A DNA stretch of 64,000 nt, taken from NCBI GenBank assembly GCA_016201825.1, contig JACQCD010000002.1:2080-66079 (forward strand). The letters run 5' to 3'. Every line of letters begins with the position of its first letter. Within the stretch, counting starts at the first letter, position 1. This DNA comes from Nitrospirota bacterium (GTDB lineage: Bacteria > Nitrospirota > Nitrospiria > 2-01-FULL-66-17). The translations under genes and the position numbers were made by a program. Positions 9,476-62,388 of the stretch are shown one piece after another. Under the pieces are notes generated by a model. The model did not search any database, had not been told where the DNA came from, and saw nothing but the letters and a program-made list of their open reading frames with translations.

Positions 9476-9530
9476 GTGGCATCGGCCAAGTTACCCAATA
9501 GACACAGTCGGGATTGACAGATCCCTCGCT

Positions 9531-10391: not shown

Positions 10392-10435
10392 GGGCGCCTC
10401 CTTGTGCAGAAGGGGCAAGGGGGAACTGACCAGGC

Positions 10436-11437: not shown

Positions 11438-11456
11438 AGCCTCTCCCTTTTCCTCT

Positions 11457-11516
11457 CTAGCGTGACGGACAATTGTTGCTTCCCGTCTAGCGTGACGGAC
11501 AATCGTTGACTTCCGT
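11457..11516. repeat. Tandem direct repeat, 2 x 30 nt, in the GH57/GalT-like intergenic spacer
   Basis: The two units are ctagcgtgacggacaattgttgcttcccgt and ctagcgtgacggacaatcgttgacttccgt (about 26/30 identical). Each contains the near-palindrome gacggacaatTgt. The second unit abuts the GH57 stop codon. Confidence 0.6.
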
Positions 11517-42004: not shown

Positions 42005-42005
42005 G

Positions 42006-43498: not shown

Positions 43499-43692
43499 TC
43501 TCCCCCTTTTTGGACGTAATTTTTCACGAACTCTTCGGCATTTTCTTCCAACACTTCGTCGATTTCGTCAAGCAGTTTATCGATGTTCTCTTTGATCTTC
43601 TTCCCTTTTTCGAGAACTTCGGGGTTGGGAGTTGCCGCCGCGTCGTCACGTCGCCCGACTTTTTTGAGATCTCGTTTTTTGTCCTGTGACAT
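43495..43692 (-). CDS. pup: Prokaryotic ubiquitin-like protein Pup (C-terminal Gly-Gly-Glu)
   Basis: 66 aa MSQDKKRDLKKVGRRDDAAATPNPEVLEKGKKIKENIDKLLDEIDEVLEENAEEFVKNYVQKGGE. GGGGGG lies 8 nt upstream of this ATG. The C-terminal helix region is Pup-like and the protein ends in GGE. Confidence 0.8.
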   Translation of the reverse strand: MSQDKKRDLKKVGRRDDAAATPNPEVLEKGKKIKENIDKLLDEIDEVLEENAEEFVKNYVQKGGE

Positions 43693-43761
43693 CGTCATCA
43701 CCCCCCTTGGCTGCGCCCAGACACAAACAGATGCGTTCCAACCCCGCGTCAATAGCCGGTA

Positions 43762-45240
43762 TTAGGCACTCAGGCGGGACACCAGCGACTCCACGGTGTC
43801 CGATTCGTCCAATAACCCTCCCACTAACTCCTTGGTGCCGCGGGCTGGCTCGTTGAGGGGAATCCGCTTCACCACCGCTTGTCCTACGTCGAACAAGATC
43901 GACGCCCAACTCGCGGCGTAGATTTGGTCGGGGAATTTCTCCAGACACCGTCCTCGGAAGTATGCACGGGTATCGGACGGCGGAGCGACCATCGCCTCAT
44001 CGACCGCCTCCGGATCGAGCAGTCGATCCACGTAACCGCCCTTTTCGAGGGCCGAGAACAACCCTTTCTCGGGCCGCAAATCGTGGTACTGCAGATCCAT
44101 CATCGCAATTCTGGAATCGGTCCACTTGCAGCCTTTACGGTCGATATACGACTGCAGGAGGTCTCGTTTGATGACCCAATCGATCTCCCGCGACAACTGC
44201 GATGGATCGCGAGCGAGCAGATCGAGCACGCGCTCCCACCGCGCCAGGATATCCCTGGTTTCGGGATCCGCTCCACGCTCCGCACAATATCGATGCGCGG
44301 TTTCCAGATAATATTCCTGAATCTGCACGGCGGTCCACTGCCGGCCATCTTCCATTGCAATGGGCTGCTTTAAGGACAGGTCGCGCGACACATCTTTTAT
44401 CGCATGCACCGCATCGGCCAATTTCAGCTCCTTGACCGGATACCCCGCCTCGATCATCGACACGACGAGAGCGGTTACCCCCAGCTTGAGGTATGTCGTG
44501 ACTTCCGACATATTGGCGTCCCCCACGATGACGTGGAACCGCCGATATTTGGTCTTGTCGGCATGGGGCTCGTCTCTCGTATTGATGATGGGACGTTTCA
44601 CCATGGTGTTGAGGTCCACCAAGACCTCAACAAAGTCGGCGCGCTGGGAGATCTGGTACTGAGCAGGATTCGCCCGATTCTCCGCCCCGACCTTGCCGGC
44701 TCCGGCGTAAATCTGCCTCGTGACAAAAAACGGGATCAACTGCGTCACGAGCCGCATGAAGGGAACGGATCGCGACACGAGATAATTCTCGTGATAACCG
44801 TAACTGTTCCCCTTCCCATCGGTATTGTTCTTGTAAATCACGAACCGATGTTCCCCCGCCGTACGTTCTGCCCCAACGCGGCACGCCTCCAAAATACGTT
44901 CGCCGGCCTTTTCATAACGCACCACGTCTCGAACACTCGCGCACTCTGGGGTGGAATACTCGGGGTGCGCACCGTCCACGTACAAGCGCCCCCCGTTCCC
45001 GAGCAACTTGTTCAGCAATCGATTGTAATCCGGAGCTGGACGCTCCTTTTCCCCCTCCACTTCAAAACCTCGGGCATCAACTAACGGGTTTTCATTCTCG
45101 TAGTCCCAGAGAGTATTTCTGGACGGAACCGCGTCCACGCTGTTAACAAGCAAAATGGCGTTGGATACCGGGTCCTGGGCCGCGGCATCCTTGACCGCCA
45201 CCCCGAATTCCGTCTCGGTTCCGAGAATACGAGGGGTCAT
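43762..45240 (-). CDS. dop: Pup deamidase/depupylase Dop
   Basis: GTETEFG, plus the Dop-specific ~40-residue insertion ([22 protein letters not shown]...). Also [44 protein letters not shown] and [11 protein letters not shown], collinear with M. tuberculosis Dop. Confidence 0.85.
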
Positions 45241-46985
45241 AAATAGTGCCCGGTCGTCACGGTTTCGATCTTACGGGACTCGGTCACGCGACTGGTGATG
45301 GTGCGCACGTGCACAATTTTCTCGCTCTTCCGTCCGGCAATCTTGGCCCAATCGTCGGGGTTCGTTGTATTCGGAAGATCCTCGTGCTCTCGAAACTCAT
45401 CGCGCACGGCCTTGGACAGATCCTCGGCTCGGATGCCGCGTTCGCCTCCCCCTATCGCGCGTTTGATCGCGTATTTCTTTGCCCGAGCCACGACGCCCTC
45501 AATCAGCGCACCGCTCGCAAAGTCCTTGAAGTACAAGATCTCTTTCTCACCGTTGGCATAGGTGACTTCCAGGAATTTATTGTCCTCGCTCGCGCTATAC
45601 ATCTGATCGACGACCTCAGCAATCAGGTTCGGCACCACCTCGTCCACCCCCCGGCCCTCGGGCAGACTGTAGGGAAGGTCCAGAGACAAATACTTGCCGA
45701 AGATCTCTTTGGCCGCCCGGCGATCGGGGCGGTCGATCCGAATCTTGACGTCGAGACGGCCCGGGCGGAGGACGGCTGGGTCAATCAGATCTTGGCGATT
45801 ACTCGCGCCGATCACGATGACATTCCGAAGGCGTTCCACGCCGTCGATCTCAGCCAGGAATTGAGGAACGATAGTCGACTCCACATCCGACGAGATCCCG
45901 GTCCCCCGCGTGCGGAACAGAGAGTCCATTTCGTCAAAGAAGACGATGACCGGCATCCCCTCCTGGGCTTTATCCTTGGCCTTCTTGAACACTTCGCGGA
46001 TCTGACGTTCGCTTTCTCCCACATACTTGTTGAGCAACTCGGGCCCCTTGACGTGGAGAAAGAAGCTTTTCACTTCCCGCCCCGTCAGGTGGCCGAGTTT
46101 CTTCGCTATGGAGTTGGCCACCGCTTTCGCGATCAGCGTTTTCCCACATCCAGGCGGACCGTATAAGAGAATGCCCTTGGGAGGAGAAAGGTGGTACTCC
46201 GCAAAGAGGTCCCGATGGAGGAACGGCAACTCGACCGCGTCGCGGATCTGTTCGATCTGATCCTCGAGCCCACCGACCTGCTCATAGGTCACGTCGGGCA
46301 CTTCCTCCAGAACGAGTTCTTCGACCTCCGACTTCGGGAGCTTTTCCAGCACATAGCCCGACCGCGTGTCGAACAGCAGATGGTCCCCCACGCTCAACCG
46401 CTCGTCCCTCAGAGAAGCCGCGACCTCGGCCACACGCTCTTCGTCGGCTCGCAACATAATAATCGCGCGATGGTCATCCAAAAGGTCTTTCAGCTTGACG
46501 ACTTCTCCCTGGACCTCAAACGCCTTCACCTCTACGACGTTGAGGGCTTCGTTAAGAATAAGCTGCTGGCCCTTTCGGAGGTCCGTCGCCTTAAGATTCG
46601 GATGAAGATTCACCTTCATCTTCCGGCCCGCGACATAGATATTGACAGTCCCGTCCTCATTGAGGTCGGAAAACACCGCATACGAAGACGGCGGCGCCGT
46701 CAGCTTTTCGACCTCGAGCTTGAGCGCTTCGATCTGCTCTCGCGCTTCCTGAAGGGCTGCGATCAGTTTTTCATTATGTCGATGGACTTGCTCCAAGCGA
46801 TCCCGGGACTGCTCAGTCTCGCGGAACTCTTCCTCCATCGACCGGATCTGAATCTGGAGCTTCTCGATCTCCCTACGGTATATCAAGGGCTCATCAGAGT
46901 CATTCCCCGCCAACTGATCCTGCAATTTTCTAATGGTGGTTTTTAAGGAATTGAGCTTGCCTGACTGGCGCTTCGACTCGCTCAT
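45237..46985 (-). CDS. arc: Proteasome-associated AAA ATPase ARC/Mpa
   Basis: An N-terminal coiled coil, OB domains, an AAA module [22 protein letters not shown] (Walker A) and a C-terminus ...TVTTGHYL (penultimate Tyr for gate opening). Confidence 0.85.
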
Positions 46986-47803: not shown

Positions 47804-48880
47804 TTACTCGATCAAATCCTCCAGAGGACTTGACGCATTGGCATAGAGCCTCTTGGGAATTCGGCCCGCGCGATACGCGAGTCGTCCCGCCCGAACCGCA
47901 TCCCGCATGGCTTCCGCCATCATGAGCGGATCTTTGGCGCCCGCGATGGCGGTGTTCATCAACACGCCGCCACAGCCCAGTTCCATGGCAACGGCAGCGT
48001 CCGACGCCGTCCCGACTCCCGCATCCACGATGACCGGGACCTTGACCGTCTCCATGATAATCCGGAGATTATAGGGGTTACGGATCCCCAGGCCCGATCC
48101 GATCGGTGCGGCCAACGGCATCACCGCCGCACATCCGACATCTTCAAGTTTTTTGGCCACGATCGGATCGTCCGTGGTGTAGGGCAGAACGACGAAACCT
48201 TCCTTGACCAAGATTTTGGCCGCCTGCAGCAAGGCCTCGGTGTCGGGAAACAGCGTCCGCTGATCACCGATCACTTCCAGCTTGACCAAATCAGACACCC
48301 CGGCCGACCGCGCAAGCCGCGCGGTCCGAACAGCCTCTTCGGCGGTATAGCATCCTGCGGTATTCGGAAGAATTCGATAGACCTTGGGGTCAAGATAATC
48401 CAGCAGATTGTCGCTGGACCGATCGAGAATATTGACCCTCCGCACGGCGACGGTAACCATGTCGGCCCCTGAGGCGTCGATCACTCGTTTGGTTTCAGCG
48501 AAATCTTTAAATTTCCCCGTCCCGACGATCAGCCGAGATCTGAGATCCAGAGGGCCAATGCGTAGGCAATCCTCACCCCCGCCCCCCCCGACAAAACTGA
48601 CAATCTCGACGCGATCTCCCTCCTCAAGGGCTTTCCCGGCAAACGCGCTGCGCTCGATCACCGACAGATTCACCTCCACGGCAACCCGGTCCGGAATGAC
48701 TCCGAGATTGGCCAGCAGTTGGCCGATGGTCGTGCCTCGCGCCAGCGCGGATGCCTCTCCGTTGACCGTGACCACTACGTGAGCAACACCACTCGATCGC
48801 ACCGTCACCCTCCCACTCGGCTGCCCGAATCGGCAACGCTCAGTAAAACGATTATAACGAGCGCTGGAAAATGAAGTCAA
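47804..48880 (-). CDS. thiG: ThiS-ThiG fusion (sulfur-carrier domain plus thiazole synthase)
   Basis: N-terminal ThiS: [45 protein letters not shown]...[12 protein letters not shown]. Then ThiG: [19 protein letters not shown]...[15 protein letters not shown]...[14 protein letters not shown]. The track start is a TTG; the real start is probably an internal GTG near residue 32-37. Confidence 0.75.
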
Positions 48881-49209
48881 ACCAGAGCGGGGAACAGGCC
48901 GCGGACGAATGTCAGATATTCCTGAGGGGGGTTAATCAGCTCGATGCCCATCTCGGCTTTTCTGAGGTGCCGAGCTAACGCCGGCGGAATGCGCATCGCC
49001 CAGGTCACGTACCCTCGCAACGAGAATCCCTCCCGATCGGGCAGACGCATCTCCAGAACCCGAAGCGTCTTGGCGGGATAAATGGCGGTGGTTTTAACGA
49101 AGAGCCCGGCCTCCGAAACGTCGATCGTAAAGCCGAGCTGGGACGGGTGGTTAACGCCAAATCGAACTTCGATTCGCTTGGTACGCCGAACCTGTTTTTG
49201 TTTTTCCAT
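48877..49209 (-). CDS. PilZ-domain protein (putative c-di-GMP receptor)
   Basis: 110 aa with an N-terminal RRTKR (RxxxR) motif and DVSEAGLF (D-x-S-x-x-G), the two c-di-GMP-binding PilZ motifs. Confidence 0.6.
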
Positions 49210-49214: not shown

Positions 49215-50030
49215 TTACCGCCGGGGCGCAATGACCGTTTCAGCGGAATACGGGCTTTCGCAGCCACGGGCATCCACCGCCGTGACCCGGTAGGTCATCG
49301 CCCCTTTCGCATCAAGCCCGGTGTCCACGTAACTTGTCGCGCTTTGGGGGGAGGGGGTCACCCGAACTCGACCACGGTCATCTTCGCGATAGAGATGGTA
49401 CCGGAGCCCCGGATCCCTAGGTCCTGACCACGCTAGGTACACACTGGCCCGCCCTTGGCGGGGGCTCCACAGGTTGAACGGCGGAGGAGGCGGCGTTGCG
49501 GTCGGCATGGACGATGCGGTGACAATGAACCGGTGAGGGGTCCCCACGTGGTTCGTAAAAGAGTACGGCGACGGCGAGGCCGCCAGGTCATACGTCTGGC
49601 CGGTCAGAGCGTCCTGGAGCGTCCAGGCAACCTGCGCGCACTGGGCGGCAACGGTGGAGGGGGGCGTCCACGACAACGAGATCGCAGCGTCCGCCTGATC
49701 CGACGTCACCTCGATGTCCCACACCTGAGGAAAGGTGTCGCCACGCACATCCCACCACAGCGATTGCCGGCCGGCGGGATAGCTTGGGTGTCGGATCACC
49801 GCGGTCAACACGTCGGACGGAAACGCGGCCACCGCGTCCCACGAGGTATCGAAATTATCCGTGCCACCCGGTTCGACTCCGAGGCGCAAATGGTTCTGCG
49901 CCATCCCCCCTTCGGCGGCCTGCGAGGGAACCGAGACCGTCAGATCGATTTCCGAGGCGTGCGCCGGGAGCGCCATCATGCCACACCCCGCCATCAACAC
50001 CGCGCCCACCCATGCTCTCCGTGACTTCAC
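49215..50030 (-). CDS. Secreted protein with C-terminal fibronectin type III domain
   Basis: A GTG start 4 nt after AGGAGG, with the RBS overlapping the stop of the giant gene. The signal peptide is KSRRAWVGAVLMAGCGMMALPAHA. The C-terminal FN3-like region runs PPPFNLWSPRQGRASVYLAWSGP...YHLYRED...YVDTGLDAKGAMTYRVTAVD. Confidence 0.5.
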   Translation of the reverse strand: MKSRRAWVGAVLMAGCGMMALPAHASEIDLTVSVPSQAAEGGMAQNHLRLGVEPGGTDNFDTSWDAVAAFPSDVLTAVIRHPSYPAGRQSLWWDVRGDTFPQVWDIEVTSDQADAAISLSWTPPSTVAAQCAQVAWTLQDALTGQTYDLAASPSPYSFTNHVGTPHRFIVTASSMPTATPPPPPFNLWSPRQGRASVYLAWSGPRDPGLRYHLYREDDRGRVRVTPSPQSATSYVDTGLDAKGAMTYRVTAVDARGCESPYSAETVIAPRR

Positions 50031-50039
50031 GATGCCTCC

Positions 50040-53000
50040 TTAGGGACGGGTGAACACGAGCACGGCATCCGACCCGAAACTCTGGACCCATGCTCCGTTC
50101 CACGGCTTGAACGTCGCCGGTGGACTGGTCGAGAGTCCGTACGGTTGCGTCGTCACCCCGTCATACAGATAGATCGCCGGGCCGACCCAGCCGTTTGTCA
50201 CCGCATTCTGATACGGCACCGGCGCTCCGGCCCCACGTTTGACCTGAACCTGGCTCAACAGAATATCCTGCTCGTACGGGTTCCCGACCATGTTGAATCC
50301 CAACTCGAGCGGCACATCAAAGGTCGGACTAGAGACCACCGGACCTGGCGCGTCCAAGACCGCCTGCGTGCCCAGGGAGCGAAGAAAATACGCTGATCCG
50401 GCGTGGATCGGACCAAGAACCCCGCACGGGGAAAACGCGGGCGTTGACACCGTCCCCTCGTAGCACCCGTCGGTCGGAAGGGGGCCGGACGGATTCCAAC
50501 GGTAGGCGTACACGGGAATCCCGACATCGTCGCCGAACACTCCATCGGCCGTGTCGCTGCCGACCACGGGAATCCGGGGAACCGACACCATGGTATAGCC
50601 GAGTCGCAATGCCGTCCGTCCCACGGCCACGTTCGACAAGCCCGATCGATTGCCTCCATCGTCGATGGCTTGGATCGCGAAGTAATAATTTGTATTCGAG
50701 GTCAGCCCACCCACGAGTACTTGCTGCGCCTGGCCGGAAGGACCGGGAGCAGCCGCCGCCATAACCGTTCCCTGGCTGAAATTAACCGATGTGAGGGGGA
50801 ATGTTGCGTAGCGTACGTCGTACGCCGCGGCGGTTCCGACCGAGCCGTCGTCGCCGGTTGCCGTCCACGTGAGCAAGAGCGACGCGCCCTTCGCCGCGCC
50901 GGAGAACACGGCCAGATCCGTGATCACGGCCGGGGCAATTGTGTCTGCGGACGGAGGGGCGGTTGAGGCGTCTAAAACATTCGACACCGTACCAAGCTGA
51001 CTGAACGCGTCCATGGCCCTCACCGCCACGTGGTAGGTCGTCCCCGGAACGAGGCCGTCGATGACCAGGCTTGCCGTCGTCCCGCTGCTCTGGGGAGTGT
51101 GGAGCGTGTACGGCGTCGCCGTGTCGAAATTGAAGGGGGTCGAGGTCGAGTATCGCACCAGGTAGCCGGCCAGCGGGCCCGAGTCGTCGACGGGAACGGT
51201 CCATTGAACACTCACGGTATTCGCCGTGGGCGCCGCGGCGCCAGGTCGGAGGTCGGCAATCGCCGGCGGGGGTTGATCAACTGGGGTTGTCACCGTCACC
51301 GGCGCCGACCACCCCGACGCATTCGGAATTTCATCCAACGCCCGGAGCTCAAACACGTAGGTGTTGCCTCCGCGCAGCGTGGAGACCGTCAGCGTTTCGG
51401 TTCCACCGGGAGTCTTGGTGGGGGTGATCGCTTGTACACTCGTAACTGTTCCGAGTGTGCGGCGCAACTCGTATCGGCCGACCATCCCCCCGGCTAACCC
51501 ATCGTCCCCAACCGCCGTCCACGTGAAGCTCACGGATATCGGCGTGGGCGCGCCTGCCACCAACGCTGGCGTCGCGGGAGGCGTGGTGTCGGCCGTCACC
51601 GGCGGCGGGGTGATCCCGGGACCCGCTCCACTCGAGTGTTGCGCCAAGCTCACGGCGACCGCGCGACCGGCGACCAGCGTATTTCGGGATAGCACGGCAT
51701 CGAACGCCGACACCAGACCGGAGCCGCTCGCTTGCGCCTCAAGGGCGGTCGCGGCGTCCCAGGCGGTTCCCGTCCACCGTGTGAGCGTGACACGACCCTG
51801 CGTGTCGAACACGCTGAGCGCCAAGCCGTCGGTCCCGCGGGCGGACGCGAGCTCGATCCACGCCGGGTATGGGGTGAAACTCACTGCTGCTCCCGCAGCG
51901 TGGCTAGCGGCAGATGTCCCGAGAGTACCACGAGTCAGACCCGACAGGATCGTCACCGTGCCTATCCCACTCGGCATCTGGCACGAGGTCGTGGTTTCGG
52001 CCTTGCTGGTATACCGAATGGTCTCGACATCCACCGCGACAAGGCCCGAGAACGGGAACGCGATGTCGTTACAAATGGACAGCGCTGTTCCGGACGCCAA
52101 TACAGCGGAATCGAGCTTCGCCGCCAACACCGTCGTCGGCAGCGGCGACGGGATGGGGGACTCAGCCGACCAGCCCCCGGCGGACGACCACGCCCGCGAG
52201 GCGCCGCGCTGGCCGGCCTGAGTGGTGTACGCGGCCAACAGCTCCCCGCTCGTTCCCTCCCACGCGAGATCAAAGCTCCGGCCACCGGCCTCGCTCATCA
52301 GACTCGTGGTCAAGGTGTCGGCGGTCGCCGACCATTGCGCCCCGTCCCAGATCAGGACATTGAGCGCCAACGCCGATGTCCCGCTGCTTGCGGCCAGCGC
52401 AATGCGATTTGAGGTCGCGGAGAGATCGCCCACCAGTCGGAGGGCCGTGAGGGGACCGCTCCCCGCAGACGGCGTCGTGCCTTCGACGCCCCATCCGCCG
52501 ATGTCCGCTAGATCCCGACTCCACACGCGGTAGTGCGGCGTGCTTTCTCCTGCTGCTGCCCACGCGGCCATCATCCTTCCCGTCACCCGTTCGAACGCAA
52601 CATCGACGATTGGCGCGTCGTGACCTGCCGCGTTGGTGGTCAACAGGACGGAGTCTTCCCACGCCTGGCGACTGCCTCGCCAGACCACCGCGGCGACGTC
52701 GTCGTTCTGGTCTTCGTAGACAAGAACCATGTCGTTCGTCGCCGGGCGTGCCTCAAGGCGAACCCACAGCGGTCGGCCCGTGGTCTGTTGGCCGTTGACC
52801 AGATCCTCGACCAGCGCTTCGGCGCTCCAGCTTGCGCCGTCCCATATGCGATAGCGCAGCGAGGTGGAGTCAGTTCGCGCGTAGACGACCACAGCGTGTC
52901 CGGTCTGCTGCTCGTACGCCACGTCCACGGCCTGCGTGGGCCGCGCCAGCCCGACCGACGACGTGGCCTCGATCGCGCCGGTCCACACCTGGCCGTTCCA

Positions 53001-56000
53001 CACACTGAGCATCAGGCGGCGCTGATCATCCACGACGGCCAGGATCCGCTCATCCCGAATCGGATTGGCCTTCATCACCTGCCAGACCGGGGAGGCGGAA
53101 AGGGACGGGCCGGTCAGCCGGCTCGACCATGCTCCGCCTATCCATCGCTGGTACTGAACGGCCGGAACGCCTTGCTGGCCGTATGACGCGATCGCCGAGA
53201 TCAGGTCGGCCGGCGGGGTTCCGACGTAAAACGCCCTGTCCGCGGTGATGCGCCCCCCGTCAGGATTCGTGACGGTTAGGGCATGGTATCCCGCCGCGGC
53301 ACCGGTCGCCACGGTCAATTGGGCGCTCAGGGTCGCCGTGTCGATCCGCGTCAGCCCGCTCACTGTGAGCTCGCTGTCAAAGGCAATCCCCACGCCGGGT
53401 TGGAAGCCCGCGCCCACGATGGTGAGCGCAATCGCGGGACCCTGATTCCCGTAGGCAGGCGTCAACGTCGAAACGGAGGGCCCCGCGTTGATCGTCATCA
53501 GACCCGATCCCCGTCCGTCGTCGGAATTGGTCACGACCACCGGATAACTCCCCGGCAGAACACTTGGTGCGACCGCCACGTTCGCACACGCGATCGTGGA
53601 GTCATTCGTCGCCGCGCACGTTCCGGTGACACCGGCGGGGAGCGTCACGGTGGCTGCGACCAGGGTGCCCGCATCAAAGTTTCCCCCGCTCACGGTGAGC
53701 GACATCCCGGACGCCCCGACGCCCAGCGCCGGACTGACCGATGCGACCGTCGGCGGCGGATTGATCATCACGCGACACGTGGAGCACCCCGAGGTAAACC
53801 CGCTGGGGGTCGTCAACGTCACGTCGCGAAAACCCGGGGCGGCGGTCTCCACCACGTTGATCGTGACCGTTCCCCCGTCGCCGTCCGCGTTGGCGCGGAA
53901 ATTGGCGATGGGATTGGTCACCTGAACATCATAGGTGCCGGGTCTTAACAGCGGATCCGTCGGGTCAAGCGACCGATCCGTGTCCCAGTAAAACTTGATC
54001 TGCTCCGGGCTGACGTACACGCACGGCGTGGAGGAGGTCGGCGTTGAACCTTGGACCGCCACGCAGGAGAGATCGCCCACGACGACCGCCGCTCCGGGCC
54101 GGAATCCGGAATCGGCATCGCTGAAGCCGACAATCGTCACGGCCCGGCTCGTGGTAATCCCGGCCGTGACGACGGCGGGGGCCAGTTTCTCGACGCGAGG
54201 CCGCGGAGCTCTGATGGTGAATCCACCGGGCAAGCTCCCTAGCCCCGCCCCGACGTAGGAGGGATTTGTCACCTGCACCGCGTACGAACCGGGCTGTATC
54301 GCGGTTCCTGGTGAGGTTGCTCCATTATCCCAATAGAATTCCAAATGCGTATTACTCACATAGACGCACGGCACGGTCGGACTCGCCACCGTTCCCGAAA
54401 CCGCCGTGCACGTGAACGTCCCAACCGTGATCACTGGCCCATCGGCCCCGACGGGCGCATAGAATCTTGAGCCCCTGATCGCGACGGATTGACTCGGGGT
54501 CACCGCAAAGTCGACCGTCGAAGGCGTCACGCTCTGGATGATGGGGAGCGGAGGAGCGACGGTAAATGCCTTGTCGAGGAAGAACCATAAGCCGCCGGCG
54601 CTCTGAGGGTTCGTTACCTGCACCGGATAGACACCCGGCGCCAGTCCCGTGTTGGCCCAGTAGAAACTGAGCCGCGTCGCGCTCACGAACGCAAAAGGAA
54701 CCGTGGCCGTGGCTTGCGAACCACTCACTGTGACCCCGGACAGGCACGTCCTCGGCTGGCACACCCCTCCGGTCAGCGTCCCAATCGTGACGGTGGCTCC
54801 AGTGGTGAAATTCGTCCCGAAGATCGAGATCGACTGACTCGCGGTCACGTCGTACGTCACCGGGCTCAGGACGACGGTGGTGATGGTCGGCTGCGGAGCA
54901 TCCACCCTGAACCCGTCGGCCAGACTCACCGTTGCGCCGCCACTCGCCGCGGGATTGGTCACCGTGACGGTGTACGAGCCGATGGCCAGCGACGTGTTGG
55001 GCCAGTAGAAACTCAGCCGGCTGCTGCTCACAAACACAAAAGGGGTCGTCGCGGTCGCCGTTGCGCCCGCCACCGTCGTCCCCGGCAGCGTGGTCGTCGT
55101 CGTTGGGCTGCTGATCGTGATCGTGGCGCCCACCAGGAAATTCGTCCCGAAGATCGACACCGCCGTACTCGGCGTGACCCCGTAGGTCGCCGAACTCGGA
55201 AACGTCGAGGTGACCGTCAACTGGGCTCCCGCGACGGTGAAGCCGTCGACCAGCGTAGCGGCCAGACCACCCGCCGCGGCGGGATTCGTGACCTCCACGG
55301 TATAGGTGGCCGCATCCAGCGACGTGTTGGGCCAGTAAAACCTGAGTTGGCCGCTGCTCACGAAGACAAAGGGCGTCGTCGCAGTCGCCGTCGTGCCCGC
55401 CACCGTGGTCCCCGACAGCGTTTTCGTCGACGAGGGGCTGCTGATCCTGACCCGGGCTCCAACAACGAAACCCGACCCGAAAATGCTGATACTCCCGGTC
55501 GCCGACACTCCGTACGTAACGGGGTTCGGGCTGGTGCTAGTGACCGTGGGTTGCGGGGCGGCCACACTGAAGCCGTCTGCCAGGCTCGCCCCCAACCCTC
55601 CGGCGGCCGAGGGATTGGTGACTTGGACGGTGTACGAGCCGATGGCCAGCGACGTGTTGGGCCAGTAGAAACTCAGCCGGCTGCTGCTCACGTAGACGAA
55701 CGGGGTTGCGGCGGTCGCTGTGCTGCCTGCCACCGTCGTCCCCGACAAACTCCCCACCGTGATCGTGGCCCCCACGATGAAACTCGACCCGATGATCGAG
55801 ATCGAATTACTGGAACTGATGCCATAGGTGACTAGCGTGGGGCTCACGCTGCTGACCGTGGGTTGCGGAGCCGCCACACTGAAGCCGTTTGCCAGACTCG
55901 CCCCCAACCCTCCGGCGGCCGAGGGATTGGTGACTTGGACGGTGTACACGCCCGGCAGCAGCGCCGTGTTGGGCCAGTAGAACTTGAGTTGGCTGCTGCT

Positions 56001-56573
56001 CACGTAGACGAAGGGTGTTGCGGCGGTCGCTGTGCTGCCCGCCACCGTCGTCCCCGACAGGCCCCCCACCGTGATCGTCGCCCCCACCACGAAATTCGTC
56101 CCAAAGATCGATACCGACGCGCTGGGCGAGATCGCATACGTCTCGGCGCTCGGCGACACGCTGCTGACCGTGGGCTGGGGAGCCCGGACGGTGAATCCGC
56201 CCGTGAAGGTAACCGATTCTAATGTCGGATTTGTGACTTGGACGTCGTACACCCCGGGAGCCAGGCTTGTGTTCGGCCAATAGAACTTGAGCTGGCTCGC
56301 GCTCACGTACACGAAGGGCGTCGTCGCCGTGGCCGTCGAACCCGCAACCGCCGCGCCGGATCGGCTGCCGACCGTGATCGTCGCGTTCAGTTGGAAATTC
56401 GCGCCAAAGATCGTGACCGACGAACTCTCGGTGACCGCGTAGGTGACCGACGCGGGGGTGACCGAGCTGATCGTGGGTGGAAGCGCCATCGCGGGTGCGG
56501 ACACCCCGCACACCGCCGCAAACACCACGCCGCCCACAAGGGTCCACCCACTTCGTCGTTGAGAAATCGACAC
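50040..56573 (-). CDS. Giant secreted/surface protein: signal peptide, ~10 IPT/TIG domains, Trp-rich repeat (propeller-like) region, 3 FN3 domains, and an unknown C-terminal domain
   Basis: The start is reassigned to the GTG at residue 46 of the track ORF. It is preceded by a T-run and AAGGAGG plus 5 nt, giving the signal peptide (M)SISQRRSGWTLVGGVVFAAVCGVSAPAMA|LPPT. Next come ~95-aa tandem repeats (PQPTVSSVSP...TYG...SIFGTNF.VGATITVG.LSGTTVAGSTATAATPFVYVSSS.L.FYWPNT.L..G.YTVQVTNP). A central region has recurring W.G..W units (RIWDGASWSAE, LIWDGAQWSAT, TRWTGTAWDAA). Three FN3-like modules follow (YELRRT...TYVFELRALD; YLVRYSTS...TYHVAVRAMD; YDVRYATF...NYYFAIQAID). No C-terminal TM or sortase motif is present. 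Confidence 0.7.
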   Translation of the reverse strand: MSISQRRSGWTLVGGVVFAAVCGVSAPAMALPPTISSVTPASVTYAVTESSSVTIFGANFQLNATITVGSRSGAAVAGSTATATTPFVYVSASQLKFYWPNTSLAPGVYDVQVTNPTLESVTFTGGFTVRAPQPTVSSVSPSAETYAISPSASVSIFGTNFVVGATITVGGLSGTTVAGSTATAATPFVYVSSSQLKFYWPNTALLPGVYTVQVTNPSAAGGLGASLANGFSVAAPQPTVSSVSPTLVTYGISSSNSISIIGSSFIVGATITVGSLSGTTVAGSTATAATPFVYVSSSRLSFYWPNTSLAIGSYTVQVTNPSAAGGLGASLADGFSVAAPQPTVTSTSPNPVTYGVSATGSISIFGSGFVVGARVRISSPSSTKTLSGTTVAGTTATATTPFVFVSSGQLRFYWPNTSLDAATYTVEVTNPAAAGGLAATLVDGFTVAGAQLTVTSTFPSSATYGVTPSTAVSIFGTNFLVGATITISSPTTTTTLPGTTVAGATATATTPFVFVSSSRLSFYWPNTSLAIGSYTVTVTNPAASGGATVSLADGFRVDAPQPTITTVVLSPVTYDVTASQSISIFGTNFTTGATVTIGTLTGGVCQPRTCLSGVTVSGSQATATVPFAFVSATRLSFYWANTGLAPGVYPVQVTNPQSAGGLWFFLDKAFTVAPPLPIIQSVTPSTVDFAVTPSQSVAIRGSRFYAPVGADGPVITVGTFTCTAVSGTVASPTVPCVYVSNTHLEFYWDNGATSPGTAIQPGSYAVQVTNPSYVGAGLGSLPGGFTIRAPRPRVEKLAPAVVTAGITTSRAVTIVGFSDADSGFRPGAAVVVGDLSCVAVQGSTPTSSTPCVYVSPEQIKFYWDTDRSLDPTDPLLRPGTYDVQVTNPIANFRANADGDGGTVTINVVETAAPGFRDVTLTTPSGFTSGCSTCRVMINPPPTVASVSPALGVGASGMSLTVSGGNFDAGTLVAATVTLPAGVTGTCAATNDSTIACANVAVAPSVLPGSYPVVVTNSDDGRGSGLMTINAGPSVSTLTPAYGNQGPAIALTIVGAGFQPGVGIAFDSELTVSGLTRIDTATLSAQLTVATGAAAGYHALTVTNPDGGRITADRAFYVGTPPADLISAIASYGQQGVPAVQYQRWIGGAWSSRLTGPSLSASPVWQVMKANPIRDERILAVVDDQRRLMLSVWNGQVWTGAIEATSSVGLARPTQAVDVAYEQQTGHAVVVYARTDSTSLRYRIWDGASWSAEALVEDLVNGQQTTGRPLWVRLEARPATNDMVLVYEDQNDDVAAVVWRGSRQAWEDSVLLTTNAAGHDAPIVDVAFERVTGRMMAAWAAAGESTPHYRVWSRDLADIGGWGVEGTTPSAGSGPLTALRLVGDLSATSNRIALAASSGTSALALNVLIWDGAQWSATADTLTTSLMSEAGGRSFDLAWEGTSGELLAAYTTQAGQRGASRAWSSAGGWSAESPIPSPLPTTVLAAKLDSAVLASGTALSICNDIAFPFSGLVAVDVETIRYTSKAETTTSCQMPSGIGTVTILSGLTRGTLGTSAASHAAGAAVSFTPYPAWIELASARGTDGLALSVFDTQGRVTLTRWTGTAWDAATALEAQASGSGLVSAFDAVLSRNTLVAGRAVAVSLAQHSSGAGPGITPPPVTADTTPPATPALVAGAPTPISVSFTWTAVGDDGLAGGMVGRYELRRTLGTVTSVQAITPTKTPGGTETLTVSTLRGGNTYVFELRALDEIPNASGWSAPVTVTTPVDQPPPAIADLRPGAAAPTANTVSVQWTVPVDDSGPLAGYLVRYSTSTPFNFDTATPYTLHTPQSSGTTASLVIDGLVPGTTYHVAVRAMDAFSQLGTVSNVLDASTAPPSADTIAPAVITDLAVFSGAAKGASLLLTWTATGDDGSVGTAAAYDVRYATFPLTSVNFSQGTVMAAAAPGPSGQAQQVLVGGLTSNTNYYFAIQAIDDGGNRSGLSNVAVGRTALRLGYTMVSVPRIPVVGSDTADGVFGDDVGIPVYAYRWNPSGPLPTDGCYEGTVSTPAFSPCGVLGPIHAGSAYFLRSLGTQAVLDAPGPVVSSPTFDVPLELGFNMVGNPYEQDILLSQVQVKRGAGAPVPYQNAVTNGWVGPAIYLYDGVTTQPYGLSTSPPATFKPWNGAWVQSFGSDAVLVFTRP
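54650..56480. repeat. Intragenic near-identical DNA tandem repeats (~300-330 nt period, at least 5 copies) encoding the IPT/TIG modules
   Basis: The motif gacgtgttgggccagta(g/a)aa recurs at about 54991, 55321 and 55651, with diverged copies at about 55961 and 56261. Stretches of ~95 nt at about 55541-55635 and 55853-55947 are ~95% identical at the nucleotide level. Confidence 0.6.
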
Positions 56574-56706
56574 CCGCCCCTCCTTAAAAAAAAGAGTAGT
56601 GATGACCGGGGATGACACGAATCCCCTCTGCCTTAGACCTGGACGGGCGCGATTTATTCCGATTTTGCGCGTGCGGCGCTCAAAGCCCGGAACAGGATCG
56701 GCCGCC

Positions 56707-56736
56707 ACTATATCGGTGATATTTCAAGGCTGTCAA
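56707..56736 (-). promoter_or_regulatory. Candidate sigma70-type promoter for the giant gene (-35 TTGACA, 18-nt spacer, -10 TATAGT)
   Basis: The minus-strand reading is cTTGACAgccttgaaatatcaccgaTATAGTggc. It lies between the DUF3105 stop (56748) and the giant-gene start (56573), implying a ~125-nt leader. Confidence 0.35.
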
Positions 56737-56747: not shown

Positions 56748-57281
56748 TTACGGCCGTGCACGCTCTTTGGACGCCCCCTCCGGTTCCGACGGTGGATGGT
56801 GATCCTGGCCGCGGTAGGCCTCGATAAATCGGCGGACCAGCCCTTCGTCCCAGGATTCTATCGTCGCGATCCGACCCCACGCCGTGAGCGCGAAGGCGCT
56901 GGACAGGCTGGGCTCAGGGGTCACAAGAACCTGGGTGGGATACTCGGTGAGAAGGCGCTCAAGGGCCGTCATCGTCTCGGGACACGGGCGATCGCAGCGA
57001 TAGTGGATGATGATCCCGCCGTCCTCAAGGTTATGGACCTGCACCTCCCACAACACCGGGATCCGGTGCATCCCCCACGGCGCCAACCACGGAACGTGGG
57101 GACCGGAAGTCGGGGGCAGAGAATGATACGGGGTATGCGGAGATCCCGGCGACTGGAGATGATCGTTGCCTTGAAGCGGGACCGCGCGGCCCGGCTCGTC
57201 GCCGGACACGCTCGCCTGGACGGGGACGGCCCAGCATAACCCCGCCGCAAGCCACGCCAAGCCGTTCCCATTGAGGCGCAT
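56748..57281 (-). CDS. Secreted DUF3105-domain protein
   Basis: A signal peptide MRLNGNGLAWLAAGLCWAVPVQA. The DUF3105 core runs PPTSGPHVPWLAPWGM...VHNLEDGGIIIHYRCD...VLVTPEPSLSSAFALTAWGRIATIESWDEGLVRRFIEAYRG. Confidence 0.55.
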   Translation of the reverse strand: MRLNGNGLAWLAAGLCWAVPVQASVSGDEPGRAVPLQGNDHLQSPGSPHTPYHSLPPTSGPHVPWLAPWGMHRIPVLWEVQVHNLEDGGIIIHYRCDRPCPETMTALERLLTEYPTQVLVTPEPSLSSAFALTAWGRIATIESWDEGLVRRFIEAYRGQDHHPPSEPEGASKERARP

Positions 57282-57372
57282 AGGGGTTTTATCCTACGGC
57301 TGACCCCACCACCAAGTCAATCCGGGCCGTGTCGCCTTGACAGGCTGGAGAGGTTTCAGTAGAGTACGGCCC

Positions 57373-58344
57373 ATGCGGAATGTCCTTCCTCGTGTCGGCA
57401 TCAAACGCATGGTGTGGGCCGTGGTGCTGGGTTCTGCGCTCGTCGGTTGTACCTCGACGATACCTCCCCCTCAGTTTGATTTCTCCGCCCAGCGCACCAC
57501 CTTCCTCACCCACGACACCTTCGACAACCTGAACCCAACCTGGAGTCCCGACGGAAACACGGTCGTCTACGTGTCCAACCGGAACGGCGGGTGGAATCTC
57601 TGGGCCGTCACGCTCGACGGCGCCGCGCCGCGCGCCCTGACGACGGGGCCCGGTGAAGACCGGTTTCCCGCGTTCTCTCCCGACGGCAAGCGTCTCGCCT
57701 TTGCGTCGCGGCGCTCCGGGAACTGGGACATCTGGGCGGTCAACCCCGACGGCACGGGGCTCGCTCAACTCACCACCCATCGCATGGACGATCTGGCTCC
57801 CGCCTGGAGCTGGGACGGCAAGCAGATTGCCTTCGACTCATATCGGGATTTCGAGTACAGCATCTACGTCATGGACGCCGACGGCGCCAACCAGCGTAAG
57901 TTGACCACTGGCGGCAACGGCGATTGGGGGGCGTCGTTCGCTCCATCGGGCGACACGGTCGTGTTCGCCTCGACGCGCACCGGGCATGGCGATCTGTACG
58001 CGATCGATCTGGCCGGAAAGGGGCCGTACCGGCGCCTCACTCAGACCGAAAACGAACGCGAGATGATTCCGACGTTCAATGCGGATGGATCCAAAATTGC
58101 GTTCGTGGCCGAGCGCGAGGGCGGGCGCGACATCTGGGTGATGGATCCCGACGGGAGTCGCCAGACACGCCTCACCCGCAATCTGTCGGGAGCCTGGCAA
58201 CCGCGGTTCAGCGTGGACCGGGAACTCTACGCGGCGATCGGGTACTTCACCGTGGCGTGGAGTCCTGACGGCCGTTCGCTCGCCTATACCCATGTCGACC
58301 GCGATGGGACGGGACAGATCGCGATCCTCTCGCTCGCCCGCTAG
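57373..58344 (+). CDS. PD40/TolB-like beta-propeller lipoprotein
   Basis: A signal plus lipobox MRNVLPRVGIKRMVWAVVLGSALVGC. PD40 repeats follow: PTWSPDGNTVVYVSNRNGGWNLW, PAFSPDGKRLAFASRRSGNWDIW, PAWSWDGKQIAFDS, ASFAPSGDTVVFAS, PTFNADGSKIAFVAEREGGRDIW. The start is placed at the ATG (residue 13) after a TTG track start. Confidence 0.65.
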   Translation: MRNVLPRVGIKRMVWAVVLGSALVGCTSTIPPPQFDFSAQRTTFLTHDTFDNLNPTWSPDGNTVVYVSNRNGGWNLWAVTLDGAAPRALTTGPGEDRFPAFSPDGKRLAFASRRSGNWDIWAVNPDGTGLAQLTTHRMDDLAPAWSWDGKQIAFDSYRDFEYSIYVMDADGANQRKLTTGGNGDWGASFAPSGDTVVFASTRTGHGDLYAIDLAGKGPYRRLTQTENEREMIPTFNADGSKIAFVAEREGGRDIWVMDPDGSRQTRLTRNLSGAWQPRFSVDRELYAAIGYFTVAWSPDGRSLAYTHVDRDGTGQIAILSLAR

Positions 58345-58384
58345 GAGCCTGTCCATGGATGACCATCTGCTGCGTTGTCAGTCG

Positions 58385-59578: not shown

Positions 59579-61447
59579 TTACGGTTCTATAATCTGTATC
59601 GTCCGGTTGGCTTCAAAGGGCCCCTGGATCGCCTGGTGTCGCCCTGTTGGCCAAATAATGTCGACCCTGTCTATCGTCCGGTGTTCGCCCAAACCGAAAT
59701 AGATCGGGATTTGGCTCTGCGAGAGATAGCCCGACTTGCCATCGATGTAACGAACCTGGCGGTTACCGCCGTAGGAGATGCTCACCCACGCTCCAATCGC
59801 GTTGCGATTCGAAGCCGTTCCCACCAGTTCCATTTTGAGGTAATGGATCCTACGGCGCTGAGCCAGGTTGCTCACCAAGACCTGCGGAACATCGTTAAAT
59901 TCAGTCGTAACGATGTCCAGATCCCCGTCATTATCGAGGTCGAAGATCACCGAAGAACGAGAACTCCGAGCCCCGCTGACGAACCCGTTCCGATAACAGA
60001 TCCCATCGACCACGCAATCTTGACTAGTGTTAAACACACGGGAGCACTCCACGCGCTCCTGATCACGACCGCCGCAGTCGAGTGCAAAGTAGTCGCCGAT
60101 GAGGGTGCCGTTCGCTCGCGGCTCGATGTTGAGCTCCTTTTCCGCATGCCTGAACCGCTCGCCCTTCTCGTTGATCAGCACCACATTTTTGGCATACGGA
60201 AATGGATACCCCATACCAGACGCCACAAACACGTCTTGATATTGGTCCGCGTCCAGATCCTCGACGCTGATTCCCCAGGGCCAGTAGGTTTCTGCACCGA
60301 TGGCATCCGACATTTCTTCGTAACGGCCATCGCCCATATTCTTATAGAACGTATTCCCCAAGATGTTGTGACTGACATCGCCCATCATCCGCGGGGCCAG
60401 CTCGCGGGGCAGTTTCATGGTCTCCGCTGTGATTCCCCCAAACATGTCCGAGTGCATGTCGGTGGTCATGAGGTCGATGAGCCCGTCGTTGTCGAAATCG
60501 AAGAACTTGATACCCATGGCTCCCCACCCTGTCTTCGGAAACACGGTGGGGGTCACTTCGATGAAGCGCGTCCCACCCACGTTCTCAAAGAACTGATCGT
60601 CGCCCTGCATGTTCGTCACGTAAAGATCCGGGTACCCGTCGTTGTTGTAATCCGCGATCGAGGCGTCCCCATTCCATCCCACGAGATCACCAAGCCCCAT
60701 CTCGCGGCTCACATCTTTAAAGCGCCCACCGCCTAAATTTTTATAGAGGATGCTTCGCTCCGCAAATTCCGGTTGGAGATGCAATTCAAAGGCCCTCTCG
60801 CGCCCCACGTAGTAACCCTGGGAGTCGAACTCGTCGGTAGTGTATCGGCCCACATTCACCACCAAGAGGTCCAGCAACCCGTCACGATCAAAGTCAAAAA
60901 ATACCGCCCCAGACGAATGCCCGTGATAGTCTAATCCAGACGATTCGGTCATGTCCCGAAAAACACCGTTTCCTTCATTCTCCAATAGGACATTGCCCCC
61001 CCGGACCGCTGTGACAAACAAATCCTGGTCTCCATCGTTATCAATATCGGCAAACGCCCCGCCGACACCGACCCGATCACCCAACCCGGTATGAGAGACC
61101 TCCGTAATATCTCGAAATCTGCCCTCACCCAAATTCTTATACAGAGCATTGGCACCGACTTGGTTGATAAAATATAGGTCCACAAGACCGTCGTGATCCA
61201 CGTCGGCGGCGAGGACCCCATTTCCGTGGTCGTAATGGACCGCCTTATAGCGCCGACCCGCATCGTGGACGATCCGATGCCGGAACGTAATGCCAGACTT
61301 CTCTTGCTGATTCGTGAATGAAAACGACGAGGGAGCCGTGGACTGACCTGGGGGCGTGGTGTGCCAATCGCCGAGGGAACCGGAACACCCGCCCAGGACA
61401 ATCAAGATAATGGCCCCAAGAGGAGACCGGCTCCCGATCGTCGTCAT
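59579..61447 (-). CDS. CRTAC1-family lipoprotein (FG-GAP/VCBS-like repeats plus C-terminal ASPIC/UnbV domain)
   Basis: A lipoprotein signal MTTIGSRSPLGAIILIVLGGC. Repeated D-x-D-x-DG loops follow (DVDHDGLVDLYF, DIDNDGDQDLFV, DFDRDGLLDLLV, DYNNDGYPDLYV, DFDNDGLIDLMT, DLDNDGDLDIVT). The C-terminal region ...AIGAWVSISYGGNRQVRYIDGKSGYLSQSQIPIYFGLGE... is typical of UnbV_ASPIC. Confidence 0.6.
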   Translation of the reverse strand: MTTIGSRSPLGAIILIVLGGCSGSLGDWHTTPPGQSTAPSSFSFTNQQEKSGITFRHRIVHDAGRRYKAVHYDHGNGVLAADVDHDGLVDLYFINQVGANALYKNLGEGRFRDITEVSHTGLGDRVGVGGAFADIDNDGDQDLFVTAVRGGNVLLENEGNGVFRDMTESSGLDYHGHSSGAVFFDFDRDGLLDLLVVNVGRYTTDEFDSQGYYVGRERAFELHLQPEFAERSILYKNLGGGRFKDVSREMGLGDLVGWNGDASIADYNNDGYPDLYVTNMQGDDQFFENVGGTRFIEVTPTVFPKTGWGAMGIKFFDFDNDGLIDLMTTDMHSDMFGGITAETMKLPRELAPRMMGDVSHNILGNTFYKNMGDGRYEEMSDAIGAETYWPWGISVEDLDADQYQDVFVASGMGYPFPYAKNVVLINEKGERFRHAEKELNIEPRANGTLIGDYFALDCGGRDQERVECSRVFNTSQDCVVDGICYRNGFVSGARSSRSSVIFDLDNDGDLDIVTTEFNDVPQVLVSNLAQRRRIHYLKMELVGTASNRNAIGAWVSISYGGNRQVRYIDGKSGYLSQSQIPIYFGLGEHRTIDRVDIIWPTGRHQAIQGPFEANRTIQIIEP

Positions 61448-61565: not shown

Positions 61566-62375
61566 TTAACGGGAATCCTTCGCACAGCGGAACCCCACGT
61601 CGTAGCCGGTATGCCAGTCGGTGTCGCGGTCGTTGATCGCGAACAATTCAGGCGCGTAGCGGTGGGTGGCGCGGGCGAAGGGTTGGGCCGGCACGCCCCA
61701 TGACCCGCCGCGGAGCACTCGGTTGCTTTTACCGAACGCGGAGCGGGTGAGCGTGCTCCCAGGGTAGGCCTCGTACCAGGAGCTCGTCCACTCCCAGACG
61801 TTCCCGATCATGTCTTCGACCCCGTACACGCTGGCGCCACCGGGATAGCTCCCCACCGGCCGGCTCCACGCCAGACCGGACTCCATCGTATTGGCGCGAT
61901 CGGACGAAAACCCCGTGCCCCACGGATACGCGGCGCCGTCGGGACCGCGAGCGGCCTTTTCCCACTCGGCTTCGGTCGGCAGGCGCTTGCCGGCCCACCG
62001 GCAGTAGGCGTCGGCGTCGTACCAGTCGGTGTCGGATACGGGGTTGGTGGGCTCGCGCCGGAGCGCGTCGCGTTCCCGCCAGGGCGCGGGGAGGTAGGTC
62101 GACCCCGTCGCGTTAATGAACTTGGCATACTCCGCGTTGGTGACCTCGTAACGATCGATGAAGTAGGCTGGGAGCACAACTTGATGGCGGGGCAATTCAT
62201 CGACCCCCACCTCAATGCCCACCACCCCCTCTCGCTCGTCGCTCCCCATCCAGAACGGTCCCGCCGGAATCAGAACCATCCCCGGCTGCGAATCACCGGA
62301 CGGCACAATCGGCGCCAGACTGCAGGCGCCCGAGAGCAAGCCCACCATCAGCGTGAAGACCCGCCTCATCCGCAT
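61566..62375 (-). CDS. FGE-sulfatase-family lipoprotein (no catalytic Cys pair)
   Basis: The start is placed at the internal ATG (residue 44), 4 nt after AAGGAGA: MRMRRVFTLMVGLLSGAC (lipobox). Then [41 protein letters not shown] and GFRCAKDSR. Confidence 0.7.
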   Translation of the reverse strand: MRMRRVFTLMVGLLSGACSLAPIVPSGDSQPGMVLIPAGPFWMGSDEREGVVGIEVGVDELPRHQVVLPAYFIDRYEVTNAEYAKFINATGSTYLPAPWRERDALRREPTNPVSDTDWYDADAYCRWAGKRLPTEAEWEKAARGPDGAAYPWGTGFSSDRANTMESGLAWSRPVGSYPGGASVYGVEDMIGNVWEWTSSWYEAYPGSTLTRSAFGKSNRVLRGGSWGVPAQPFARATHRYAPELFAINDRDTDWHTGYDVGFRCAKDSR

Positions 62376-62388
62376 GCCCTCTCCTTCC

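Follow-up and report, generated by a model that had tools for sequence, protein, structure and literature searches.

Uncultivated bacteria commonly encode giant, repetitive surface proteins whose binding domains and means of attachment can seldom be read from sequence. One such protein is encoded in a 64,000-nt stretch of the Nitrospirota bacterium contig JACQCD010000002.1 (hereafter the window, to which all positions refer). An earlier note, made from the letters of the DNA, described it as a secreted protein of Ig-like domains, a Trp-rich repeat region, three FN3 domains and an 'orphan' C-terminal domain. The locus raises the question of how a protein with no recognizable sorting signal could be held at the cell, and what it might bind. 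We propose, with somewhat better than even confidence, that it is a Sec-exported, adhesin-like protein of a diderm Nitrospirota whose C-terminal domain (X) docks on a domain (Y) of the small protein encoded by the adjacent gene. Taken as a whole, the giant protein is another giant Ig/FN3 surface protein of the ordinary kind. By sequence searches, X, Y and the Trp-rich propeller have no Pfam, NCBIfam or PDB match, and the main new point is the pairing of X with Y. The features that bear directly on the proposal are these:

50040..56573, minus strand: giant gene, 2177 codons, with a TAA stop at 50042-50040
56487..56573, minus strand: signal peptide, aa 1-29, with an RR n-region, a hydrophobic core and an A-x-A site; predicted cleavage between AMA and LPP
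50043..50606, minus strand: C-terminal domain X, aa ~1990-2177, ending ...VLVFTRP, delimited with a local X hidden Markov model (HMM; independent E-value 3e-61)
49215..50030, minus strand: partner gene, 271 aa, encoding a signal peptide, Y (aa ~27-175; Y HMM) and an FN3 domain (aa ~183-265; Pfam fn3)
50035..50041, minus strand: Shine-Dalgarno sequence AAGGAGG of the partner gene, 4 nt before its GTG at 50030

Export by the Sec route is indicated at the N-terminus. Residues 8-32 contain the sole strongly hydrophobic 19-residue windows outside the beta-rich repeats, and there is no further transmembrane segment. A heuristic reading of the n-, h- and c-region layout, on which the signal-peptide call is based, agrees with the cleavage site first proposed. 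As the earlier note had also remarked, known sorting signals are lacking, and every one tested proved absent. A motif scan of the giant protein detected no LPXTG, PEP motif or RTX GGxGxD repeats. Tripartite C-terminal signals of the LPXTG, PEP-CTERM, GlyGly-CTERM or MYXO-CTERM type were not encountered, the protein having no C-terminal hydrophobic segment and ending ...DAVLVFTRP. The type IX secretion system (T9SS) sorting domain (TIGR04183 / PF18962) matched neither the giant protein nor any of 17 X domains. A surface or extracellular location is predicted from the signal peptide, the lack of another transmembrane segment, the Ig-like and FN3 arrays, and an AsmA-family gene in the window, itself consistent with a diderm cell with an outer membrane.

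Domain X is not the orphan it had been taken for: a degenerate-pattern scan of GTDB species genomes recovered at least 90 confirmed relatives. Word-indexed homolog searches under-reported both X and the propeller family (8 and 7 matches, respectively), and the family sizes given here rest on the genome pattern scan for X and on a full HMM scan for the propeller. The 8 relatives of X from the word-indexed search were all terminal and all ended ...LVFxxP. No Pfam or NCBIfam family was assigned to any of 17 members scanned, and comparison with PDB sequences gave nothing significant. The Trp-rich region and the C-terminal domain, neither of which the earlier note recognized, both belong to sizeable families that lack a Pfam or NCBIfam model.

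The position of X differs among lineages. It is terminal in Nitrospirota, Thermodesulfovibrionia and Desulfobacterota, with the ending hh[F/I/Y]x[K/R/S]P, and internal in Armatimonadota, WS1, Fimbriimonadales and Ignavibacteriota, where ~270-300 residues come after it. Proteins of the internal type have subtilase, sedolisin or Ig N-terminal parts and end in an FlgD_ig-like domain or, in the Ignavibacteriota locus L037, in a T9SS type A domain (TIGR04183 after X-Y, 37.6 bits against a cut-off of 23). In some cases several X proteins are encoded by one genome. Armatimonadota loci (L016, L018, L023, L027, L032, L035 and others) hold two to three tandem paralogs of ~1000-1800 aa, each ending X-Y-FlgD_ig-like; the N-terminus in L016 is a subtilase S8 domain, and sedolisin N-termini occur in X-only relatives such as L020. 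This arrangement points to a lineage-specific expansion of putative secreted proteases that share the X-Y module.

The N-terminal ~150 residues of the partner protein share homology with the segment lying beyond X in fused proteins, and Y had no match in Pfam, NCBIfam or PDB sequences. A Y HMM built from seven split-type sequences only, that is, from sequences in which X and Y are encoded by separate genes, detected Y in the partner protein (independent E-value 1.7e-61, alongside Pfam fn3 at 26.6 bits) and also in the fused Armatimonadota proteins (independent E-values 1e-9 to 1e-20). When the X and Y HMMs were run against stop-to-stop open reading frames (ORFs) of 79 loci and the window, 143 X domains were found. 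Y came next within the same ORF for 82 of them and formed the N-terminus of the following ORF for 17; 40 lacked Y and 4 could not be judged. X lay upstream of 99 of 100 Y domains, a dependence that is partly a sampling effect, the loci having been retrieved via X. The split arrangement occurred only in Nitrospirota-like, Thermodesulfovibrionia and Desulfobacterota-like loci, with Y gene orthologs directly 3' of the X-bearing gene in L001-L009, L011, L013-L015 and L017, and every split Y had its own signal peptide. In the window, the TAA stop of the giant gene (50042-50040) overlaps the AAGGAGG (50041-50035) of the Y gene, which, as far as the sequence can tell, implies a classic translational-coupling arrangement. 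Domains that are fused in some lineages, and in others encoded by adjacent, co-translated genes, usually touch; on this ground we propose a docking contact between X and Y.

Readthrough joining X to Y was considered and rejected. The X and Y ORFs of the window do share a frame, with one stop between them; among split pairs ~7 of 17 share a frame, which is near chance, and the signal peptide and Shine-Dalgarno sequence of every Y also count against it.

A different answer to the attachment question is that X would serve as a C-terminal secretion or sorting signal of a new type, addressed to an outer-membrane translocon or a sortase-like enzyme, with Y an unrelated neighbor or a part of the machinery. 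The extreme C-terminal position of X and its conserved hh[F/I/Y]x[K/R/S]P-COOH end in Nitrospirota, Thermodesulfovibrionia and Desulfobacterota speak for such a signal and leave it a small probability, and several X proteins can share one genome. The N-terminal repeats of the giant protein, moreover, belong to a 'choice-of-anchor' family, a name which signifies that relatives carry varied C-terminal anchors; a search of the literature on 'choice-of-anchor' domains found nothing about family Z. However, 82 of the 143 X domains are internal and continue into Y in the same ORF, and the Ignavibacteriota protein has a genuine T9SS type A domain after X-Y, a recognized sorting domain besides X. At ~190 aa, X also far exceeds tripartite sorting signals, and it has no transmembrane segment. 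No candidate sorting enzyme lies nearby, and the 30 window ORFs scanned included no secretion-system or sortase component. Since most copies are internal and one fused relative has a separate sorting domain, it seems improbable that X by itself directs secretion or sorting, and we rate this explanation as quite unlikely overall. The suggestion that the C-terminal domain might be a novel sorting or anchoring signal is not supported in its sorting half, and its anchoring half survives in altered form, with the partner domain placed in an adjacent gene.

In sister Nitrospirae, partner proteins carry a C-terminal transmembrane anchor. In the low-GC members L007, L009 and L011 the Y protein runs on through a linker rich in Gly and Ser to a motif of the GGGCGY[IV]K type (GCGTVK in L007), ~15-20 further residues, a hydrophobic helix and basic residues; the tail of L008, where the contig ends inside it, is probably of the same kind. 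To judge from its layout, this tail looks like a C-terminal sorting signal or membrane anchor, and no Pfam or NCBIfam model matched the GGGCGY-transmembrane tails. The Y proteins with such a tail, probably also that of L008, are:

L007, 12838-13611 (strand n/a)
L009, 7894-8805 (strand n/a)
L011, 3047-3799 (strand n/a)
L008, 6538-7197 (strand n/a)

In L007 three consecutive genes (4601-13611) encode a 2034-aa protein ending in X, a 704-aa protein consisting of signal peptide, Y, Ig-like repeats and X, and a 258-aa protein consisting of signal peptide, Y, linker and transmembrane anchor. L013 has two separate pairs of X and Y genes in one locus. The Y proteins of the window, L001-L004 and L013 end in FN3 without an anchor. 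A lipoprotein anchor was entertained for the window Y protein, in which LMAGC fits the PROSITE-style lipobox pattern, and was rejected: the Cys is not kept in the L001-L004 orthologs, which have A-x-A-type signal peptidase I sites instead of a lipobox.

What the giant protein might bind is suggested by its Trp-rich region, which comprises two features:

51624..53219, minus strand: Trp-rich beta-propeller, aa 1119-~1650, from eight blade motifs, an AlphaFold2 model and Foldseek
51876..52139, minus strand: ~88-aa insertion between blades 7 and 8, aa ~1479-1566, with the motif VAVDVETIRYT...LSGLTRGTLGTSAASHAAGAAV

Eight W-x-G-x-x-W-type motifs lie 48-58 aa apart, excluding the insertion, and follow two alternating patterns, 'Y-R-x-W-[DN]-G-x-x-W-S' and a plainer one. 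AlphaFold2, run with an 8-sequence alignment, returned an all-beta propeller-type model (predicted template modeling [TM] score, pTM, 0.77; predicted local distance difference test score, pLDDT, mostly 85-95 in the core) with ~32 beta-strands. This strand count and the eight motifs fit eight four-stranded blades; ring closure and blade number are thus predicted ones. The Trp repeats had already been judged propeller-like by eye, and both model and motifs bear this out. Foldseek searches of the PDB ranked first the Photorhabdus lectins PLL, PHL and PLL2-5 together with CV39L and BP39L (E ~2e-10; target-normalized TM score 0.66-0.69), followed by the fungal fucose lectins AAL, AFL and AOL and then by some sialidase-like glycosidases. 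Blades of the PLL family are called W-motifs, and sugar sites lie between adjacent blades, with CH-pi stacking on Trp (PMC6943638). The all-beta propeller of repeated Trp-containing blades is thus shared with the PLL/PHL ('bangle') and AAL/AFL lectins, its top Foldseek matches. Identity to the matched lectins is 10-15%, and neither Pfam nor a PDB profile search shows a relation in sequence: a propeller-family profile run against all PDB sequences retrieved no PLL, PHL or CV39L chain at E<=1, and the propeller itself had no match in Pfam, NCBIfam or PDB sequences. PLL has 7 blades and AAL 6 as opposed to eight blade motifs here, and the propeller of the giant protein is internal to a 2177-aa chain and has the ~88-aa insertion. 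The earlier note had named a match to a known propeller or lectin family of defined function as an outcome that would refute it; a lectin relationship is found at the level of fold and, by the PDB profile search, not at that of family.

The glycosidases among the Foldseek matches raise the alternative that the propeller is an enzyme, a sialidase-like or glycoside hydrolase (GH)-type glycosidase or a lyase, in a secreted polysaccharide degrader with binding modules. BNR/sialidase-like and GH propellers (BT3686, BACOVA_03493) were matched at E ~1e-8 to 1e-9. Nevertheless, the lectins outrank them, with target-normalized TM scores of 0.66-0.69 against ~0.50, and the motif scan found no Asp-box (S-x-D-x-G-x-T-W) in the giant protein. 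It likewise matched no BNR or sialidase Pfam family and no glycoside hydrolase family in Pfam or NCBIfam. The conserved residues are blade-repeated Trp, Gly and Tyr-Arg rather than a single active-site constellation. We regard an enzymatic propeller as very improbable and favor one that binds a ligand.

The genomic context of the propeller family also bears on its role. At E<=1e-3 a five-member profile detected 3,599 representatives of clusters formed at 50% identity; at E<=1e-30 the number was 1,242. The proteins span ~430 to 7,900 aa, some with several copies of the propeller, which co-occurs with VWA, DUF11, Big and FN3 domains. About half of 23 small members read begin with a type IV pilin-like segment, either PilX-like, of the prepilin 'G|FSLIE' type or of the archaeal class III 'RGQ|AALEY' type; these N-termini were assigned by eye and were not called by Pfam. 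Members of this kind include P0069, P0125, P0078, P0133, P0084, P0077 and P0012. The propeller relatives therefore suggest a widespread, putatively pilus-borne adhesin family without a Pfam or NCBIfam model, and their pilin-like context would favor an adhesive, ligand-binding role. PilY1-type pilus propeller adhesins are comparable in that the propeller relatives sit behind type IV pilin-like N-termini. They differ in that no PilY1 family match was obtained, the relatives combine the pilin-like segment and the propeller in one polypeptide, and the signal peptide of the giant protein is of the ordinary Sec kind rather than a prepilin signal.

Neither the closest homolog (P0009) nor the L003 ortholog has the blade insertion; P0014 and P0015 do, at the equivalent position. 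Its motif, G..V.VD.E.I.Y...L.GLTRG..GT.A..H..G..V, recurs in P0012 (aa ~95-185) and P0077 (aa ~95-165), there placed after the pilin-like N-terminus and ahead of the propeller. The insertion was modeled by AlphaFold2 with low confidence, its sole family match was a weak one to Rcc01698_C (E 0.018), and comparison with PDB sequences gave nothing significant. The insertion may be a small mobile subdomain.

The remainder of the chain is made up of Ig-like and FN3 domains:

53859..56483, minus strand: eight closely related Ig-like (IPT/TIG-like, 'choice-of-anchor Z') repeats, aa 31-905, by local HMM and NF058597
53220..53759, minus strand: two divergent IPT/TIG-like domains, aa 939-1118, by Pfam TIG and NF058597
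50610..51572, minus strand: three FN3 domains, aa ~1668-1988, by Pfam fn3 (PF00041)

The eight closely related repeats are ~100-115 aa each and scored independent E-values of 1e-42 to 1e-51 per repeat with the local HMM. Together with the two divergent domains they give the ten IPT/TIG domains originally counted; the number stands, and the family name is approximate. NCBIfam NF058597 (CoaZ_rpt_PGGG; cut-off 30) matched 9 stretches in the whole-protein scan with 135.4 bits, the best at aa 1032-1114; when segments were scanned it matched 9 stretches in aa 1-1030 and one of 36.8 bits at ~aa 1032-1115. All ten N-terminal repeats accordingly score well above the cut-off of this model, whose name describes a domain and not a function. 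Pfam TIG (PF01833; gathering threshold 20.9 bits) performed differently, 8 of the 10 repeats failing to reach threshold when scanned singly: repeats 1 (26.3 bits) and 9 (24.3 bits) passed, repeats 6 and 10 (the latter 17.2 bits) fell below, the remaining repeats had no TIG match, and the whole protein gave none at E<=0.1. At the DNA level, Ig-like repeats 2-5 correspond to tandem repeats of 312-330 bp that are 73-88% matched (55541-56184 and 54945-55747, minus strand), with neighboring 312-bp copies 83-88% matched. Such similarity indicates probable recent duplication, and the number of Ig-like repeats is possibly variable. The FN3 triplet is confirmed by Pfam fn3, which matched three stretches within aa 1661-1990 with 83.8 bits (gathering cut-off 25).

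This architecture resembles that of the giant Ig/FN3 adhesins, with which the protein shares a signal peptide, a long stalk of Ig-like domains in tandem, spacers of the FN3 type and a single globular domain with a putative binding role. It departs from that class in having no LPXTG, type I secretion/RTX, autotransporter barrel, PEP-CTERM or T9SS domain, and in that the putative binding domain is mid-chain and not at the tip. The same long repetitive Ig/FN3 architecture could belong to a structural component of the envelope, such as an S-layer, sheath or matrix scaffold, in which the propeller and X:Y contacts serve self-assembly. A translationally coupled partner protein, the daisy-chain arrangements seen in other loci and the synteny with housekeeping genes kept across related metagenome-assembled genomes (MAGs) are all in keeping with such a role. 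The propeller family, however, is tied to pilin-like N-termini and to the adhesin-type domains VWA and DUF11, no likeness to a lattice-forming domain was seen among those tested, and the gene is present in single copy in the window. We consider a structural role unlikely, while noting that the structural and adhesin readings overlap and are hard to separate computationally.

Collectively, these observations can be assembled into a model of a docked adhesin. On the evidence considered below, the leader originates at a conserved promoter at 56736-56707 and GTG 56573 is the start of translation. The mature chain presents a stalk of ten Ig-like domains, the Trp-rich propeller, three FN3 spacers and X. 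The propeller would be the ligand-binding part, acting like the multivalent propeller lectins. After export of both proteins X and Y would bind non-covalently, and the small Y-FN3 protein would thereby hold the giant protein or lengthen it. The Y protein of sister lineages would end in a transmembrane anchor, or carry an X of its own to receive a further Y protein, yielding docking chains.

A broader claim is possible, and we put its chances clearly short of even: that X and Y are an undescribed complementary docking pair, used in trans in Nitrospirota, Thermodesulfovibrionia and Desulfobacterota to build multi-protein surface structures, with chains of the form (...X)|(Y...X)|(Y-transmembrane anchor). 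Diderm bacteria that are not cellulolytic would then have an assembly system like that of cohesin and dockerin, and its source would be a module that Armatimonadota and T9SS cargo proteins carry fused in cis. The analogy with cohesin and dockerin is functional only. In both cases a C-terminal module on a large secreted protein pairs with a module of a small adjacent protein, and there are chains with a two-module adaptor and an anchored last protein (L007). The systems differ in that neither X nor Y has a Pfam match, X and Y are fused in most lineages, X:Y binding is deduced from gene arrangement, and X is ~190 aa whereas a dockerin is ~70 aa.

Several observations weigh against the docked-adhesin proposal, in addition to the sampling effect in the count of Y domains. 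The 40 X domains without a detectable Y indicate that X can function alone. In the window the Y protein lacks a membrane anchor, and orthologs do not keep its apparent lipobox, so that the docking model as it stands does not account for how the giant protein is attached to the cell. The AlphaFold2 model of X is poor (pLDDT 59), its fold search had no significant match, and the window has no secretion-system genes among the 30 ORFs scanned. We infer, rather than observe, both X:Y docking and sugar binding by the propeller. The lectin likeness is one of fold, at 10-15% identity and with 8 blade motifs as opposed to the 7 blades of PLL, and sialidase-like propellers also appear lower in the Foldseek list. 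If X and Y do interact, attachment of many large surface proteins of Nitrospirota and Desulfobacterota would be explained, and a new modular docking pair would be added to the few known. The fission of X from Y turns the anchoring question into one about the interaction of two adjacent gene products, and so offers a specific answer to part of it. The propeller family, with ~3,600 clusters, a lectin-like fold and a presence on bacterial and archaeal pilin-like proteins, is a candidate general adhesion domain.

The start of the giant gene was examined with the following features:

56579..56585, minus strand: Shine-Dalgarno sequence AAGGAGG of the giant gene, 5 nt before GTG 56573
56707..56736, minus strand: sigma-70-type promoter, TTGACA-18 nt-TATAGT, 11 of 12 consensus positions matched
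56652..56666, minus strand: conserved 15-nt box AAAATCGGAATAAAT, ~40 nt past the -10 hexamer, in the ~125-nt 5' leader

The window contains a single very long minus-strand ORF of 2222 aa (50040..56708), which had been suspected of starting 45 codons too early. Three independent observations support GTG 56573 over GTG 56708 as the predicted start. First, as read from the sequence, a T-run and then AAGGAGG, with a 5-nt spacer, lie ahead of the in-frame GTG at 56573. Its product of 2177 aa has the N-terminus MSISQRRSGWTLVGGVVFAAVCGVSAPAMA, followed by LPP. Second, the -10 box of the promoter contains GTG 56708, which would therefore lie 5' of the transcript start. Both hexamers and their spacing are kept upstream of the ortholog in L003, a Nitrospirota MAG, despite only ~49% protein identity. 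Third, G+C content at third codon positions (GC3) of the 45 extra codons is 0.58, below every 45-codon window of the giant gene (mean 0.78, sd 0.07, minimum 0.60), and is that expected of non-coding sequence. The revised start is therefore retained. The syntenic L003 ortholog is 2235 aa long and ~49% identical over aa 26-1469, and the closest relatives of the giant protein are from Nitrospirota and Nitrospiria MAGs. An identical copy of the 15-nt box lies upstream of the L003 ortholog (L003 3849-3863); the box occurs once in the window, against 0.04 expected, and not at all in the other 78 loci. The box might serve as a site for a regulator or as an RNA element of the leader. A riboswitch or known RNA in the ~125-nt leader was rejected, Rfam giving no match at E<=1.

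The window has a GC content of 62% and holds the housekeeping genes MreB, PBP2, RNase G, TopA, PBP1 and GH57, as well as ThiSG and ThiE. Neighboring features are:

48877..49209, minus strand: PilZ-like gene, 110 aa, starting 6 nt after the Y gene
45237-46985, minus strand: Mpa/ARC AAA ATPase of a Pup-proteasome cluster
43762-45240 and 40622-42004, minus strand: Pup-ligase family genes of the same cluster

The PilZ-like gene may be the third gene of the operon. Its product scored 18.5 bits with PilZ (PF07238; cut-off 22.5), and RxxxR (RRTKR) and DxSxxG (DVSEAG) are visible in the translation; an ortholog 3' of the Y gene was found in L001 only. These motifs hint at possible control of the operon by cyclic di-GMP. 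The Pup-proteasome cluster (40622-46985, minus strand) adjoins ThiE and ThiSG, an order kept in L003, where the 2235-aa ortholog has DUF3105 upstream and a 270-aa gene, ThiG, ThiE, ARC and Pup ligase downstream. Three small ORFs (56748-58356), one of them DUF3105, are kept beside the giant gene in both L003 and L004. Farther upstream on the minus strand lie an FGE-sulfatase (SUMF1-like) gene (61566-62504) and a gene for a 622-aa FG-GAP/ASPIC (UnbV) repeat protein (59579-61447), another predicted extracellular protein of the propeller type.

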